From Alphaproteobacteria bacterium (GTDB lineage Bacteria > Pseudomonadota > Alphaproteobacteria > Reyranellales > Reyranellaceae), in assembly GCA_019235415.1 (NCBI GenBank), contig JAFAKN010000131.1, positions 15,219 to 79,218 on the forward strand: 64,000 bases of DNA. Direction: 5' to 3'. The notes under the pieces were generated by a model. The model saw only the letters and a program-made list of their open reading frames with translations. It was not told the origin of the DNA and did not search any database. Of this stretch, positions 49,006-54,585 are shown in pieces. Both the position numbers and the translations under genes were made by a program. Position 1 is the stretch's first letter. Every line of letters starts with the position of its first letter.

Positions 49006-49266
49006 ATGGCAAGCAGCGTCGATCTTGGCCGCGAGCTGGAAAGATTCGTGGCCTCACTGGTCTCCAGCGGGAGATACAACTCCAAGAGCGAAGTGCTCCG
49101 CGAAGGACTTCGTTTGCTGCAGGAGCGCGAAAAGCGTCTTGCGGTTTTGGATGCCGCGCTGGACCAAGGGCTAGCCGCGGCAAATCTCGGCAAGCTCAAG
49201 CCAGCAGAAGAAGTGTTCGGTCGCCTCGAGGCCAAATACAGGAAGATGGCGAAGTCCAAGGCGTGA
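49006..49266 (+). CDS. ParD-like antitoxin (Arc/MetJ fold)
   Basis: LERFVASLVSSGRYNSKSEVLREGLRLLQERE. Confidence 0.88.
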   Translation: MASSVDLGRELERFVASLVSSGRYNSKSEVLREGLRLLQEREKRLAVLDAALDQGLAAANLGKLKPAEEVFGRLEAKYRKMAKSKA

Positions 49267-49568
49267 GAGTCTCTTTCACGGAGCCTGCCGAGGAAGACCT
49301 CGAGGCGATTGGCGATTGGATAGTCAGGGATAACCCCGATCGGGCCATCACATTCGTGCGCGAGCTACGCCGCTCCTGCCTCCAAATCGGTTCACGACCC
49401 CGCAGCTATCCGTTTGTCGAACATCGGCTCAATGATGGCATTCGCCGCAGAGTGCACGGAAACTATCTGATCTTTTATCGGGTAACTGACACGGTCGAGA
49501 TTCTTCGCATCCTGCCCGGTGCTCGCGACTACGGTCGCATTCTCTTCGGCGATGATGACTTAGACTAG
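49263..49568 (+). CDS. ParE/RelE family toxin
   Basis: FTEPAEEDLEAIGDWI, GNYLIFY, ILRILPGARD; GTGA overlap with the antitoxin. Confidence 0.88.
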   Translation: MRVSFTEPAEEDLEAIGDWIVRDNPDRAITFVRELRRSCLQIGSRPRSYPFVEHRLNDGIRRRVHGNYLIFYRVTDTVEILRILPGARDYGRILFGDDDLD

Positions 49569-50531
49569 CCGCGTTATCGTTTGCGAGCCGCCGCCCCACA
49601 CCGGCAGGTAGGTCATCTTGTAGCCGGCGCCGCCGGTGACGATGACGTGGATCGCATCGGGGGCGCGCGCGACGCCATCGCCGTGCTCGAACATGTAGCG
49701 CTGCACGTGGAAAAGATCCCAGCCGTCGTGCCGCACGATCTTCTCGGCCATCTCCAGCGGCAGCAGCACGACCTGCTCGCCGCGCTCGTTGCGCCGGCTC
49801 ATGCTCGACATGACGAGCGCCGCGCGCATTCCCGCGACGATCGGCGAGAGGATCGCTTCCGGCGTGGCGCCTTCGCCGTCGCCCGGCAGGACCTCGGCAG
49901 TTCCCGACACGCCCATCACGGTGACGGCGCTGGCGTCGCCAGCCAGGCCGCGCCGCGCCGTCAGGGTGGGGAAGGGGCCGTCGCTGCGCTCGGCGAAGCA
50001 GAACGTGTACTTGCCGGGCTGCCCCATGGTCGCCATGTCGCCGACCTCGGCGCGCGCGCCGCCGATGTTGCGGATGACGAGCTGCAGGGCGCGTCCGACG
50101 CAGGCGTTGGCGCGGTTGCCCGGTCCCAGGCAGTTGGTGCCGGCATTGATGGCGAGCTGGCGCGCGATCGATCCGTGCACGCACAACGCGACGCAGGCCG
50201 TGCCCGTGGTGGTGGCGACGCCCAGCAGGTTGAAGTCCGGCTCGAGCACTGCCGCGGCGGCGGTGAGCACTACCGGCAGTTCGGCCGGCGTGCAGCCGGC
50301 GATCACGCATTGGTAGGCGACGGCCTCGGCGGTGACGTCGCCGAACATCGGCGGCATGAGGCCGTGCGATTCGCTGCGGTCCGGTATCCCGACGAGCATC
50401 GCCTCGAGGCGATGCCGCGTCGGCGGCACCATTGGCAGCCCGTCCGACAGCTCGGCGTCGATCAGGGTTTTTTGCGCGGCCTCGAAGCCCGTGCCCTCGT
50501 CGACGACGGGCCAGCCGCACCACCCGCTCAT
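49560..50531 (-). CDS. Uncharacterised protein, UGSC-operon partner (paralog B)
   Basis: SDGLPMVPPT, AGC, NCLG, GQPGKYTFCFAE, IVTGGAG; start overlaps paralog A stop. Confidence 0.8.
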   Translation of the reverse strand: MSGWCGWPVVDEGTGFEAAQKTLIDAELSDGLPMVPPTRHRLEAMLVGIPDRSESHGLMPPMFGDVTAEAVAYQCVIAGCTPAELPVVLTAAAAVLEPDFNLLGVATTTGTACVALCVHGSIARQLAINAGTNCLGPGNRANACVGRALQLVIRNIGGARAEVGDMATMGQPGKYTFCFAERSDGPFPTLTARRGLAGDASAVTVMGVSGTAEVLPGDGEGATPEAILSPIVAGMRAALVMSSMSRRNERGEQVVLLPLEMAEKIVRHDGWDLFHVQRYMFEHGDGVARAPDAIHVIVTGGAGYKMTYLPVWGGGSQTITRLV

Positions 50532-51565
50532 CCCGGGATGCGGACCGCCGCGACCGTCGTTCCGCCAAAGGACGGAATGAAGGCGGAATGCTTCCCCGGA
50601 CCGCCGGCCACCGTGATGTGGATGTCCTGTGGCGAAGGCGCGATCGCGAACCAGTCGCCGTCGGGCTTGTGGCCGGTGCTGATGTAGGTGTCCTGGTTTT
50701 CCTTGGAAATGCGCGAGACGTGGACGCGCGCGCGCTTGAACAGCTCCTCGCGGATGCTGTCCAGCGTGTAGCCGTCCCGCTTCAAAGTCGCAGCATGCTC
50801 GGGCCCGACGACCACGAACATCGGCCCCTTGCCGTAGATCGTGTTGGCGCCCGGCGTCGCCATGCTGCCGGCGAAGGTCGTGAGCAGGCCATCGCCGGTC
50901 GTGCTGCCATGGTCGTTGAGATTGTGCGGCCCTTCGCCGGACATCACCGTCACCACGTTGTCGCTCGCAGCGAAGCCGCGCTGGACGTGGTAGGGCTGCC
51001 AAGGATTCTCCTCCTCGTTCTCGCCGAAGCAGAACGTGTACTTGGCGGGATTGCCCTGCGTCGAGCGGTCCATCTCGCCCGGCTTGGCACCGGCGATATT
51101 CAGAAGCATCAGCCCGAGCGCCCGACCGATCGTGGCGTTGGCCTGCCAGCCCTGGCCGAAACAGTTGGAGCCACAGTTGATGCCGAGCGCGCGGCGGATG
51201 GGTCCGCTCACCATGACCATCGGCGCGCAGGAATGCGTGGTCGCGAGCGTGCCGTGCAGGTTGTAGTCGGGGTCGAGCACGCCGCGCAGCGCGGCGGTCA
51301 CGACGGGGAAGTACTCCGGCTTGCAGCCGGCCATCACGGCGTTGGCCGCGAGGCTCTGCAAGGTGGGCACGATCTGGCGCGGCGGCACCGGCGCGAACGG
51401 CCGGTTGTCGCCGCGCACCGTGTCGACGAACTTCGCCACCTTGTCCTCGGTGGGCACGTAGAGCGGCATGCCGTCGCTCCAGCCCTGCTCGACGGCGAAG
51501 TCGTTGAACGCCTCGACATCGAGATCGGCGATCTCGATGACCTCCTGCTCGGCGATGTCCTTCAT
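50528..51565 (-). CDS. Uncharacterised protein, UGSC-operon partner (paralog A)
   Basis: SDGMPLYVPT, AGC, NCFG, GNPAKYTFCFGE, VAGGPG; ATG overlaps the selenoprotein stop. Confidence 0.82.
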   Translation of the reverse strand: MKDIAEQEVIEIADLDVEAFNDFAVEQGWSDGMPLYVPTEDKVAKFVDTVRGDNRPFAPVPPRQIVPTLQSLAANAVMAGCKPEYFPVVTAALRGVLDPDYNLHGTLATTHSCAPMVMVSGPIRRALGINCGSNCFGQGWQANATIGRALGLMLLNIAGAKPGEMDRSTQGNPAKYTFCFGENEEENPWQPYHVQRGFAASDNVVTVMSGEGPHNLNDHGSTTGDGLLTTFAGSMATPGANTIYGKGPMFVVVGPEHAATLKRDGYTLDSIREELFKRARVHVSRISKENQDTYISTGHKPDGDWFAIAPSPQDIHITVAGGPGKHSAFIPSFGGTTVAAVRIPG

Positions 51566-52083
51566 TGAGTATCCGTGGCCTCGGCCAGACCCTTGGTTGC
51601 GGTTTCGATGCGTTCCCGGAGCTCGTCGGCGTTCAGCCCGCCGATCGGATGCTTCACGACGATCAGCCGCGGCTCGACCTTGCGGGCCTTCGCCTGGGCC
51701 ATCACCAGCGGCCTGAACGTCTCAGTGGCGATCACGTAAGCGGTGATGCCGCGCTTCTCGAGCTCGATGCTGTCGTGGAAACTCCACGATGAACAGCTTC
51801 CTCAATCCGCTATCGCTAAAAGCGCCCCGCGGTACTTGGCGGCGACCTCCTCGAGCAGGTCCTTGGGGGCCGGCTGGCTGGCGCTGTTCTTGGCCAGGAA
51901 CTCGATGTTCTCGACCGGCCGGAAGGCGCCCAGCTTGCTGCGGATGCCGGCAAGCAGCTCGCGCGCGTTGGGCTTGGAATTGGACACCAGGGCAATGGCG
52001 TCGGTCCTCCAGTTGACCGGCTTCAGCGCGACCTTCTCGGCCGTGGTGGCCGAGAGACCGAACGTCGGATTGACGATGCGCAT
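51562..52083 (-). CDS. UGSC-family selenoprotein (173 aa; TGA at 51802-51804 read as Sec94)
   Basis: ORF continues in frame for 79 codons after the TGA (AIAD-U-GSCSSWSFHDSIELEKRGI...HPIGGL) to a stop overlapping the next ATG; SD GAGGAGG; SECIS-like hairpin follows. Confidence 0.85.
51769..51797 (-). promoter_or_regulatory. Putative bacterial SECIS element
   Basis: GCTG-TTCA-TCGTGGA-[GTT]-TCCACGA-CAGC; apical loop starts with G, 19 nt after the TGA. Confidence 0.7.
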
Positions 52084-52113: not shown

Positions 52114-52983
52114 CTAGCTCTCGCCGAGCGCCTTGGCGATGGCGCGCCCGGCGCGCTCGCCGTCGGCGATCGCTTCGGCCAACGATTGCCGGGCGCCCAA
52201 CCGGATGTCGCCCACGGCGAACGCCGAAGCGACGGAGGTGCGGCCCTCGTCGTCGACCACGATATGCCCTGATGCGTCGCGTGCAAGCGAATCCGGCACG
52301 AATTCCGCAGCGGGAGCCCGGCCGACATAGACGAACGCGCCACTGGCCGGCAGGATCTTCCGCGCGCCATCAGTCTCCACCACGACGCTCTCCAGCCCGT
52401 TGCTGCCTTCGAGGGCCACGATGCGCCCAGCGATGCAGCGCATCCCGCCGGTCCCAGTCGGCGGCGCAGGGTCGACGACCGTGACGTCGTCGGTGAACGA
52501 CTTCAGCTCCTCCGCTTCCTGCCAGCCCCAGTTGGCGGCGCCGACGACAACGACCGGCTGGCCGGCATAGAGCGGTCCATCGCACGAGGCGCAGTGCGAG
52601 ACGCCGCGCCCTTCGTAGTCCTCCTCGCCGTCGACTCCCAGTCGTCCCTTGGCAAGGCCGCTTGCGATCACGACCGAGCGCGCCGTGTGGCGCTCGCCTT
52701 CGGCGGTTTCGACAGCCCACGGCGCGCTGCCCGAGAGCTGCGTGACTTCGCCGAAGCCGAGCTCGACGCCGGCTTCGGTCGCCGCGTCGCTGAGGCGCGC
52801 CGCGATCGTCGGTCCGTCCGCGGCGTCTTCCACATTGTGCAAGTGGGTGAGGTTGATCAGCGCCCCACCCGGCGCGAGCTTGTCGAGGCAGAGCGTGCGC
52901 AGGCCAGCTTGTGCCGCCTGCGTCGCGGCACTGAGGCCGGCCGGACCGGCACCGATGACGACGACATCGTACGAAGTTTCCAT
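52114..52983 (-). CDS. Thioredoxin reductase-like FAD oxidoreductase (atypical nicotinamide site)
   Basis: GAGPAG, GRGVSHCASCDG (CxxC), FAVGD; NADPH motif altered. Confidence 0.85.
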   Translation of the reverse strand: METSYDVVVIGAGPAGLSAATQAAQAGLRTLCLDKLAPGGALINLTHLHNVEDAADGPTIAARLSDAATEAGVELGFGEVTQLSGSAPWAVETAEGERHTARSVVIASGLAKGRLGVDGEEDYEGRGVSHCASCDGPLYAGQPVVVVGAANWGWQEAEELKSFTDDVTVVDPAPPTGTGGMRCIAGRIVALEGSNGLESVVVETDGARKILPASGAFVYVGRAPAAEFVPDSLARDASGHIVVDDEGRTSVASAFAVGDIRLGARQSLAEAIADGERAGRAIAKALGES

Positions 52984-52989
52984 CGTGCC

Positions 52990-53063
52990 ACTAATCGATC
53001 TTCCGCTACGAAGTGCAAGCGGCTTGACTCGGAACGGCCACATACCTAGTAATGCTAGGTATG
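52990..53063. promoter_or_regulatory. Back-to-back promoters and PadR-type operator
   Basis: Minus: TTGCAC-N17-ATTAGT, 6 nt before the reductase ATG. Plus: TTGACT-N17-TAGTAA(T), 7-8 nt before the padR ATG. Perfect inverted repeat CATACCTAG-TAATG-CTAGGTATG at 53041-53063. Confidence 0.65.
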
Positions 53064-53396
53064 GATGCGGAGATGCTCAAAGGTCACCTCGACGCCATCG
53101 TCCTGGCGGCGCTCGAAGCAGGTCCGGCGCACGGCTACGCGGTCATCGAGACCATCCGGGCGCGCAGCGGCCAGACGTTCGATCTGCCGGAAGGCACGAT
53201 CTATCCGGCACTGCACCGCCTGGAGCAGGCGGGGCTGCTGTCGAGCAGCTGGACGACGCCGCCCAGCGGCCGACGACGGCGCGTCTATTCCCTGACCAAG
53301 GCCGGGGCAGCAGCACTCGCCCGGCGTCGCAAGGACTGGACTCGGTTTGCGGGCGCCGTCGACAGCTTCCTCGGGGGACGCGCATGGCCGGCCTGA
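53061..53396 (+). CDS. PadR family transcriptional regulator
   Basis: LKGHLDAIVL, HGYAVI, EGTIYPALHRLE, RRRVYSLT. Confidence 0.92.
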   Translation: MDAEMLKGHLDAIVLAALEAGPAHGYAVIETIRARSGQTFDLPEGTIYPALHRLEQAGLLSSSWTTPPSGRRRRVYSLTKAGAAALARRRKDWTRFAGAVDSFLGGRAWPA

Positions 53397-53998
53397 TCGA
53401 GACCTATGTCGCCGACTTGCGCCGCGAGCTCGACTTCGACCGGCTTGCCGCTCAGCGCATCGCGAACGAGGTCGAGGACCATTTGCGCGAGTCGGCCGAG
53501 GCCGATCCAGCCTGGCCATCGCCGGACGCGGAGCGCCGGGCGATCGAGCGCTTCGGGCTCGGCCGCGAGATCGCCGCGCAATTCGCCGCCGACGCCATCG
53601 ATCGGCAGGCGCGGCGAACGTGGATGACGGTGTTGGCCTGTGTGATCGTGACGTTTGTCGCCATGCGCCTGCGCGTGATCTGGCTCGATGGCGAGACGGT
53701 CTCGGCCTTGGCGCCGTTGGTCGATCGATATGCCTTTCTCGGCGCCATCGCCGCCGCGACCGTGGGCTGGTTCGCGTTGCGCCGGTCGTTGCTGGCGCTG
53801 TCGCTCTGTCTTGTCGGCCTGGGCGCATCGATTGCCGCGGGCTTCGTGCGCGCGGACCTGTTCGCGCACGGGGCGCCGCTCGGCGTGCTGCTGACGGCAG
53901 GCGGCGAAATCCTGTTGGTCGGCTTGCTCTGCGTCCATCTCGTCGGCTTCGGCCGGCAGCTGCGGCGCACGGCGGCATTACGGGGAGCTCTGCGATGA
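53384..53998 (+). CDS. PadR-associated membrane protein
   Basis: N-terminal YV..L...I..EVEDHL.E...AIERFG motif followed by about 4 TM segments. Confidence 0.72.
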   Translation: MAGLIETYVADLRRELDFDRLAAQRIANEVEDHLRESAEADPAWPSPDAERRAIERFGLGREIAAQFAADAIDRQARRTWMTVLACVIVTFVAMRLRVIWLDGETVSALAPLVDRYAFLGAIAAATVGWFALRRSLLALSLCLVGLGASIAAGFVRADLFAHGAPLGVLLTAGGEILLVGLLCVHLVGFGRQLRRTAALRGALR

Positions 53999-54585
53999 AC
54001 GGTTGGCGCTTGACGGGTCTTCTGTCGCTTGTGCTGCTGGCGATGTCGCTTGCACTGGGGACGTTGCACGCCTGGGATATGGAAAGCGTCCGTCTGGTGA
54101 TCCGAGCGACGGCGCGCACCTCGCTGGTGCTGTTCGTGCTGGCCTTCACGGCGGGCGCCATGGCGCAGCTCGCGCCGGGCGAGGTTACGCGCTGGCAGCG
54201 GCGCAACCGGCGCTATCTAGGGGTGTCGTTCGCCGTCTCGCACTTCATCCATCTCGCGGCGATCCTCAGCCTCGCGGCGTTCGACAATGCGCTGTTCTGG
54301 AAGCTTACCAACGTCATGACCATCGTCCTCGCAGGCACCGCGTACCTGTTCATCGCGGCGATGACCGCGACATCCTTCGATCGCACGGCCGCCTGGCTCG
54401 GGCCACGGCGCTGGCGGCTGCTGCATCTGGTCGGCAGCTGGTACATCTGGCTGAGCTTCGCCGTCGCGATCGGCAAGCGCGTGCCGCTCGACCGCTTCTA
54501 CTGGCCGCTGGCGGCGCTCGTGCTGGCGGCAGCGGGCGTGCGGCTGATCGCGATGACACGGCGCAACCGACGCGCGCTCGCTTAA
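53995..54585 (+). CDS. Ferric reductase-like transmembrane (MsrQ-like) protein
   Basis: RRYLGVSFAVSHFIHL and WRLLHLVG with candidate heme His ligands. Confidence 0.72.
   Translation: MNGWRLTGLLSLVLLAMSLALGTLHAWDMESVRLVIRATARTSLVLFVLAFTAGAMAQLAPGEVTRWQRRNRRYLGVSFAVSHFIHLAAILSLAAFDNALFWKLTNVMTIVLAGTAYLFIAAMTATSFDRTAAWLGPRRWRLLHLVGSWYIWLSFAVAIGKRVPLDRFYWPLAALVLAAAGVRLIAMTRRNRRALA

Follow-up and report, generated by a model that had tools for sequence, protein, structure and literature searches.

A thioredoxin reductase-like flavoprotein with a degenerate NADPH-binding site is encoded beside a UGSC-family selenoprotein in an alphaproteobacterium

A TrxR-like flavoprotein as probable partner of UGSC

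Within a 64,000-nucleotide stretch of a Reyranellaceae genome (contig JAFAKN010000131.1, positions 15,219 to 79,218; hereafter the window), the gene at 52114..52983 on the minus strand encodes a thioredoxin reductase (TrxR)-like flavoprotein, and the gene downstream of it encodes a selenoprotein of the UGSC family. The flavoprotein has the TrxR fold, has lost the motifs by which TrxR binds NADPH, belongs to a distinct clade and stands in a conserved gene order with UGSC. It is very probably a partner of the UGSC selenoprotein and has likely abandoned the use of NAD(P)H. Taken as a whole, its reading as a pyridine-nucleotide-independent FAD/CxxC reductase dedicated to UGSC is favoured on balance; we infer the direction of electron flow and the physical contact with UGSC. 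The features of the gene are:

52114..52983, minus strand: TrxR-like flavoprotein gene, first gene of the operon; the open reading frame and its translation give 289 aa beginning with METSYD
52936..52953, minus strand: FAD-binding GxGxxG motif, here GAGPAG (residues 11-16), intact as read at the DNA level
52582..52593, minus strand: redox-active CASC (Cys131/Cys134) followed by Asp135; TGC GCC TCG TGC in the DNA
52525..52542, minus strand: degenerate pyrophosphate motif GAANWG (residues 148-153) instead of GGGNTA, from alignments and clade counts
52462..52473, minus strand: DPAP (residues 171-174) instead of HRRD, opening a 10-residue loop, from alignment, clade and model

Fold and catalytic motifs

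The protein matched the Pfam family Pyr_redox_2, a general family, at 5.8e-33 and Pyr_redox weakly with 29.5 bits. On TIGR01292, the curated thioredoxin reductase model, it scored 187.6 bits in two stretches and did not reach the cut-off of 343.45. The AlphaFold (AF2) model has a pLDDT of 90.9 and a predicted low-Mr TrxR fold. The best VIA match was the TrxR of L. lactis in its flavin-reducing conformation (5mh4; Z 34.5, root-mean-square deviation 1.8 Å, 285 residues). T. acidophilum TrxR (3cty; Z 34.4, 2.0 Å, 286 aligned) was also among the two best structural matches, and the E. coli TrxR-thioredoxin complex (1f6m) was matched with Z 33.2 and 1.9 Å over 287 aligned residues. The protein is built of two domains, with the FAD motifs in place and the CxxC in the second domain.

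In comparison with E. coli TrxB and the genome's own TrxB, GAGPAG, CASCDG and the G-R-G thioredoxin-docking motif are retained. G11, G13, A15 and G16 do not vary within the clade and are shared with E. coli TrxB, while C131, C134 and D135 were each found in 37/37 clade representatives. A preliminary description of this DNA had called the FAD motifs and CASC intact, which was confirmed in the DNA. The alignment with E. coli TrxB that it had proposed, carried out by sequence and by structure, revealed the motif losses described below along with the fold match to 1f6m. The protein is strongly acidic with an isoelectric point of 4.55 (clade median 4.6), and its C-terminus (...AIAKALGES) lies directly after the last helix, with no aromatic residue among the final 30. 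The change from FF to PL after CxxC-D-G was considered as a sign of changed docking and rejected, P-L/F-F/Y being common in ordinary HRR-containing TrxRs.

The lost canonical motifs and the score under the family cut-off could also be explained by a decaying or non-catalytic TrxB paralogue. This is scarcely credible, as a deep clade of full-length proteins with conserved gene order shows no variation in the FAD motifs, the CxxC or the acid-base Asp, and as more than 100 homologues with 66-87% identity are all approx. 290 aa long.

Loss of the nucleotide-binding site

Against both E. coli TrxB and the TrxB of the genome, GAANWGWQEA aligns to GGGNTAVEEA and DPAPPT to HRRD(G/S)FRA. At the VxxxHRRDxxR site, the window protein reads VTVVDPAPPT and thus contains no Arg. 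The distance from the first Gly of the motif to the conserved Gly before the return into the FAD domain is 68 residues versus 87 in E. coli, i.e. 19 fewer. In the model, no helix is predicted between the strands 167-171 and 182-185, where TrxB has its post-HRR helix, and the 10-residue loop would occupy the place of TrxB's HRR and helix. Alignment and DNA bear out the earlier assignment of GAANWG to the position of GGG(D/N)xA, and the shorter distance between the landmarks together with the helix absent from the model does the same for the shortened helix region.

The 37 clade representatives share one conserved new feature in the former pyrophosphate motif, namely Trp152 at its fifth position, which is present in all of them (37/37). 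The second-Gly position (150) is occupied by Asp in 15, Gly in 11 and Ser in 6 representatives, and by Ala in the window protein. The three HRR positions are variable, with D/T/A, then P/S/D, then G/A/S, and hold neither Arg nor a conserved acid; the other motif reads GxxxW(A/G). HRR is therefore lost at this site, as had been stated, but DPAP is no replacement motif, given the free variation of these positions across the clade. Asp was counted in 6/37 representatives at the end of strand 2, a position that is Asp or Glu in NADH-specific enzymes.

As the same changes are common to a clade with 100% SH-aLRT support, they are not due to chance. Since the pyrophosphate Gly is changed to Asp or Ala, the phosphate-binding Arg are all lost and the adjoining helix is deleted, canonical NADPH binding by the protein appears very unlikely from its sequence. 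The absence of NADPH determinants noticed earlier is accordingly supported by the alignments and the clade residue counts.

A pyridine nucleotide, most likely NADH, might still be used via a remnant Rossmann element, which would make the protein an NADH-specific UGSC reductase. The strand-helix-strand 144-171 is retained and gives the weak Pyr_redox match of 29.5 bits. Furthermore, strand 2 ends with Asp (VVD/VID), at the classical NADH-ribose position, in the window protein as well as in its closest relatives, and members of the sister clade keep GGGDSA, some of them with Glu at the end of strand 2. However, the second Gly is Ala here and Asp in 15/37 representatives, Asp171 occurs in only 6/37 with Ala, Ser or Thr in close relatives, the helix walling the adenosine pocket is deleted in the model, and the invariant Trp stands at the start of the pyrophosphate-binding helix. 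NADH binding is unlikely at clade level, and NADH as the donor, one of the earlier proposals, is disfavoured there by the lost second Gly and the scarcity of Asp. It was kept as a rival because the window copy has Asp171, but as an explanation for this protein it is improbable.

Clade membership and other reductases of the genome

Relatives were collected by an exhaustive profile-free search giving a gradient and were placed in a 195-row FastTree and a 95-row IQ-TREE. The solved sequences of FFTR, TRi, DTR (TrxR-type enzymes compared below) and oxidases were left out of the rows. The window protein carries the invariant Trp, has no HRR and falls inside a Trp-motif clade of 45 rows at 95% (FastTree) or 42 rows at 100% SH-aLRT (IQ-TREE). 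This Trp clade is nested in a 61-row clade (96%), the remaining members of which keep GGGDSA, mostly without HRR. Using phmmer, ordinary TrxRs were found at 4.5e-42, 5j60 at 7.5e-30 and 6gna at 6.8e-17, with 6gnc also weaker than ordinary TrxRs. Two short, HRR-less representatives (P0258 and P0195) were considered as FFTR-like and rejected, as they are at least as close to ordinary TrxRs as to 6gna or 5nii.

Elsewhere in the genome (G000; 768 contigs), a canonical TrxB with GGGNTA and HRRDSFRA is encoded (410.8 bits). As this separate TrxB exists, the window gene is an extra, specialised copy. The genome also encodes a YumC-type TrxR-like ferredoxin-NADP reductase (FNR; contig C314, L004:1447-2496) with HRRDRFRA and without CxxC, which could regenerate a ferredoxin or flavodoxin donor. 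The TrxR-like gene is rare and was present in 6/401 sampled genomes of the class; UGSC was found in 6/401 sampled genomes of the phylum. A search of genome contigs for related loci yielded, among the matches listed, mostly ordinary TrxB or AhpF, the informative ones being L016-L018 and L020.

Conserved gene order with UGSC

The TrxR-like gene is followed by three genes on the same strand and flanked by one divergent gene:

51562..52083, minus strand: UGSC-family selenoprotein gene, 173 aa, 30 bases downstream of the TrxR-like gene (PF24696 at 3.7e-36)
51802..51804, minus strand: in-frame TGA, selenocysteine (Sec) 94 of the U-G-S-C motif (D-U-G-S-C), translated with TGA=U
51769..51797, minus strand: hairpin resembling a selenocysteine insertion sequence (SECIS) just 3' of the TGA, with a GCUGU/ACAGC and CGUGGAG/UUCCACG stem inside the minimum free energy fold
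50528..51565, minus strand: UnkA, 345 aa, its ATG overlapping the UGSC stop (ATGA)
49560..50531, minus strand: UnkB, a paralogue of UnkA, its ATG overlapping the UnkA stop (ATGA)
53052..53396, plus strand: divergent PadR-family regulator (Pfam PadR 1.2e-22), 68 bases from the TrxR-like start codon

A UGSC gene was present in the cluster at 14 of the 15 Trp-clade loci examined, usually directly downstream of the reductase. The positive loci are the window, L016-L018 (two alphaproteobacterial metagenome-assembled genomes (MAGs) and a Lake Baikal MAG), L097-L099, L101-L104, L114, L116 and the P0144 contig. L097-L099 and L101 represent four further genomes of the class with reductases only 44-67% identical (L100 repeats L018), and metagenomic contigs were read for the representatives P0126, P0128, P0132, P0137, P0142, P0144 and P0134. 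The linkage holds down to 39-45% reductase identity and across several bacterial lineages, with the full reductase-UGSC-UnkA-UnkB cassette at many loci, e.g. L103 and L116. G074 and G370, two genomes of the same genus as the window, also contain the cassette. All reductase-linked UGSC genes read have U-G-S-C-S-S-W-S-F-H-D-S. In addition, three database proteins from further contigs are frameshift fusions of the reductase C-terminus with the UGSC N-terminus. That the flavoprotein is dedicated to the selenoprotein, as proposed in the preliminary description, is strongly supported by this gene order.

On a Woeseiaceae metagenomic contig (L104:511-6194), the order is selA-selB-selD-reductase-UGSC without UnkA or UnkB, and the reductase-UGSC pair is therefore tied to the selenocysteine machinery itself. 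In an NCBI assembly (L114:635-8806), the cluster comprises a free UGSC, a Sec-type read-through fusion of UGSC and UnkA (A-U-G-S-C-M-P), two UnkA-like genes and the TrxR-like gene as well as selB and a permease of the ArsP family. The permease could be a clue to the class of substrate.

Two sister-clade reductases that keep GGGDSA adjoin Cys-type (G-H-C-S-T-C) UGSC-UnkA fusion genes (L020:5307-7897 and L117:2041-4640). These fusions are approx. 555 aa long and are followed by the reductase gene, an arrangement resembling a selenium-free form of the system that would depend on a nucleotide. Since these GGGDSA enzymes adjoin UGSC-UnkA fusions, the association of the reductase lineage with the UGSC system predates the loss of the nucleotide site.

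The gene order also bears on whether the protein is a general ferredoxin-type TrxR (FFTR or TRi-like) for ordinary thioredoxins, with UGSC as one client among several. NADPH-independent TrxRs that reduce normal thioredoxin are known (PMC8154056, PMC5627308), and both G-R-G and the hydrophobic residues after CxxC-D-G are within the range of ordinary TrxRs. However, almost all clade loci have UGSC nearby, and no thioredoxin gene accompanies the reductase in the neighbourhoods read. The similarity to solved FFTRs is low (6gna at E 6.8e-17), and neither the cyanobacterial C-terminal Trp tail nor the TQ/NGK motif of TRi is present. Such a general role is highly improbable.

The operon and its flanking genes

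Co-translation in the window is argued from the ATGA overlaps and from a strong Shine-Dalgarno site, GAGGAGGA, in the 30-base gap between the TrxR-like gene and UGSC. The UGSC protein scored 114.8 bits on NCBIfam NF041046 (cut-off 125), and the same TGA was found in every UGSC orthologue read. The folding energy of the hairpin after the TGA is by itself not significant (z-score of -1.6 for 66 nt).

UnkB is approx. 31-36% identical to UnkA orthologues in cross-hits. The UnkA/UnkB family is very large with more than 7000 homologues, all named 'hypothetical', and UnkA had no match in Pfam or NCBIfam. A Foldseek search of the PDB with the UnkA fold gave no match at E ≤ 0.001 (best 2.1e-3, TM 0.22), and the best VIA-wide match had a Z of 6.5 and covered the C-terminal sub-domain only. 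In the ESM Atlas, the UnkA fold is fused to UGSC (76% of the members of a 420-aa cluster) and also to AhpC-TSA/Redoxin domains. The UnkA-UGSC fusions match the 'UGSC/Unknown_1 fusion' of Zhang and Gladyshev (PMC2398784). UnkA and UnkB are likely the end users of the reducing equivalents.

The divergent PadR gene is conserved only in L016 and L017, the two closest MAG loci. Within 53052-54585 of the window, the PadR regulator is followed by membrane-protein genes. At 49006-49568, UnkB meets a convergent ParD/ParE-like toxin-antitoxin pair, which overlaps the 3' end of UnkB by a few bases.

Selenocysteine machinery

The genome contains selA (560.7 bits), two selD and selB as fragments. One selD (G000 C17:582-2216) forms part of an open frame of 731 codons, in which a pyridine-nucleotide-disulfide oxidoreductase domain is matched as well; this is probably the Ndh-SelD fusion reported by the Global Ocean Sampling study (PMC2398784).

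Co-folding of the reductase with UGSC

No natural full-length Cys-form UGSC was found for co-folding. In two full-length database proteins, Sec is replaced by Gly or Trp, probably as an artefact of translation. P0273, which is 87% identical to the window UGSC and has Gly at the Sec position, served as the stand-in, and paired alignments were used. The co-fold with the TrxR-like protein scored 0.40 (best control 0.00), which weakly supports contact. The mark was reached by 58/80 solved complexes and by 2/110 mismatched pairs, and scores of 0.60 or less were obtained for only 7 of the 80 solved complexes and for both passing mismatches. The runs agreed in at least 77% of the contacts with a partner pLDDT of at least 82. 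As TrxR-Trx complexes have already been solved, the pass may reflect likeness only.

Proposed electron path and its alternatives

In the proposed path, a donor other than NAD(P)H would reduce the FAD, and, following the domain rotation typical of TrxR, the flavin would reduce the Cys131/Cys134 disulfide. The resulting dithiol would reduce the Sec94-Cys97 selenenylsulfide of UGSC, which in turn would serve the co-translated paralogues UnkA and UnkB. The leading candidate for the donor, named already in the preliminary description, is a ferredoxin or flavodoxin that might be reduced via the YumC-type FNR of the genome. By analogy with FFTR, DTR and TRi (PMC8154056, PMC5627308) this assignment is possible, but doubtful.

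Several observations weigh against this reading. Concerning the donor, no conserved ferredoxin or flavodoxin gene was found in the neighbourhoods read, and the strong acidity of the protein and its clade is unexpected for a partner of acidic ferredoxins or flavodoxins. By phmmer, the sequence is not close to the solved FFTRs, and it has neither the cyanobacterial Trp tail nor the TQ/NGK motif of TRi. Concerning the nucleotide, the window copy still has a G-x-A-x-x-G remnant as well as Asp171 where strand 2 ends, and might thus use NADH weakly. Concerning the partner, the P0134 locus (L112) has no UGSC nearby and is the sole exception among the 15 Trp-clade loci. The genome also encodes five UGSC paralogues, each with one TGA, but a single TrxR-like reductase. 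The four other paralogues are located on C722, C245, C650 and C130 (L011, L012, L014 and L015) and belong to a second UGSC subtype (D-U-G-S-C-S/T-S/T-C-S-L-H-D). This subtype, also present in G074, G584 and G608, adjoins an UnkA-like gene without a reductase wherever flanking DNA exists. The reductase may therefore serve only one of the five UGSC modules or all of them.

The electrons could also flow in the opposite direction. GliT, DepH and HlmI are TrxR-fold dithiol oxidases and TrxR homologues without a working NADPH site. The window protein would, by likeness to them, be an FAD-dependent selenol/thiol oxidase that re-oxidises UGSC and passes the electrons to O2 or another acceptor. Besides the shared lack of a working NADPH site, homology to one such oxidase (4ntd) is detected at E 5e-13, the operon has no linked gene that would supply a reductant, and the hosts look aerobic judging from their taxa. 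A GliT- or DepH-like role is thus a real rival. However, the similarity of the protein to true TrxRs (E 4.5e-42) far exceeds that to 4ntd, and its model is in the rotating, flavin-reducing TrxR conformation. Cytoplasmic UxxC selenoproteins are usually reductive catalysts, and the sister enzymes of the same system keep the nucleotide site, which implies a reductive input. The oxidase is judged slightly less probable than the already improbable use of NADH.

A further reading is that low-Mr TrxR-type flavoproteins of aerobic bacteria may have found, in this clade, a new way of taking up or giving off electrons, with neither NAD(P)H nor a classical acidic ferredoxin or flavodoxin involved. The flavin could then exchange electrons with UnkA/UnkB, with a small-molecule donor or with O2 as the acceptor. 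In that case, the nucleotide site would have been lost in co-evolution with the replacement of a Cys-type fused UGSC by a free-standing Sec-type one, and the operon would be a complete, self-contained selenium-dependent redox enzyme of an undescribed kind. This is about as improbable as the use of NADH. The UGSC-dedicated reductase independent of pyridine nucleotides stays the favoured reading.

Comparison with known systems

With TrxB (1tde/1f6m, TIGR01292), the window protein shares the two-domain fold (Z 28-34), the FAD motifs, CxxC-D-G and the G-R-G docking motif, and its predicted flavin-reducing conformation superposes on the TrxR-Trx complex. It differs in that the clade lacks GGGxxA, HRRxxxR and the following helix, and in its TIGR01292 score, which is far under the cut-off (187.6 versus 343.45).

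Loss of the NADPH site is already known from other TrxR homologues. The clostridial FFTR (6gna-6gnd) and the cyanobacterial FFTR/DTR (5j60, 6xtf) likewise have the TrxR fold with a non-functional NADPH site (PMC8154056), and the clostridial enzyme also resembles the window protein in its length of approx. 290 aa and in its donor, presumed to be a redox protein. In contrast to FFTR, the TrxR-like protein has no C-terminal Trp tail, is very acidic and is linked to a selenoprotein instead of a thioredoxin. TRi has GEGxxAxN and a conserved TQ/NGK motif, was reported only from anaerobes, and reduces Trx1 independently of NAD(P)H (PMC5627308). In the enzyme of Desulfovibrio vulgaris (DvTRi, 5nii), GGGxxAxE and HRRD have given way to other sequences, the pseudo-NADPH domain lacks a segment and canonical TR1 coexists (PMC5627308), all as observed here. 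The window clade differs from it by GxxxW(A/G), variable HRR positions and the UGSC neighbour, and contains neither TQ/NGK nor GEGxxAxN. The TrxR of Thermoplasma acidophilum (3cty), a near-best structural match, also lacks the VxxxHRRDxxRA motif (PMC5627308). It is, however, an archaeal housekeeping enzyme without a link to a selenoprotein.

NADPH-forgoing TrxR homologues have so far come mainly from clostridia, sulfate reducers, cyanobacteria and archaea, and with the clade this short list now includes an apparently aerobic, mostly proteobacterial lineage. For the question of why the nucleotide site was lost, a natural before-and-after series is available in the sister enzymes, in which it has been retained. 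The UGSC family has already been catalogued, but without an assigned function, and no paper in the literature searched links a TrxR-like protein to UGSC or describes the Trp-motif clade. The co-travelling reductase would define the upstream half of the UGSC redox chain.

A further parallel is glycine reductase, for which operon-encoded TrxB and TrxA feed selenoprotein A; there, the reductase is NADPH-dependent and acts through thioredoxin. In both cases, the operon brings together a reductase of the TrxR type, a small selenoprotein as redox carrier and larger catalytic subunits. However, GrdA is unrelated to UGSC, and the window operon has neither a thioredoxin gene nor a nucleotide site. With the flavoprotein, UGSC and UnkA/UnkB, it provides a concrete system for in vitro work.

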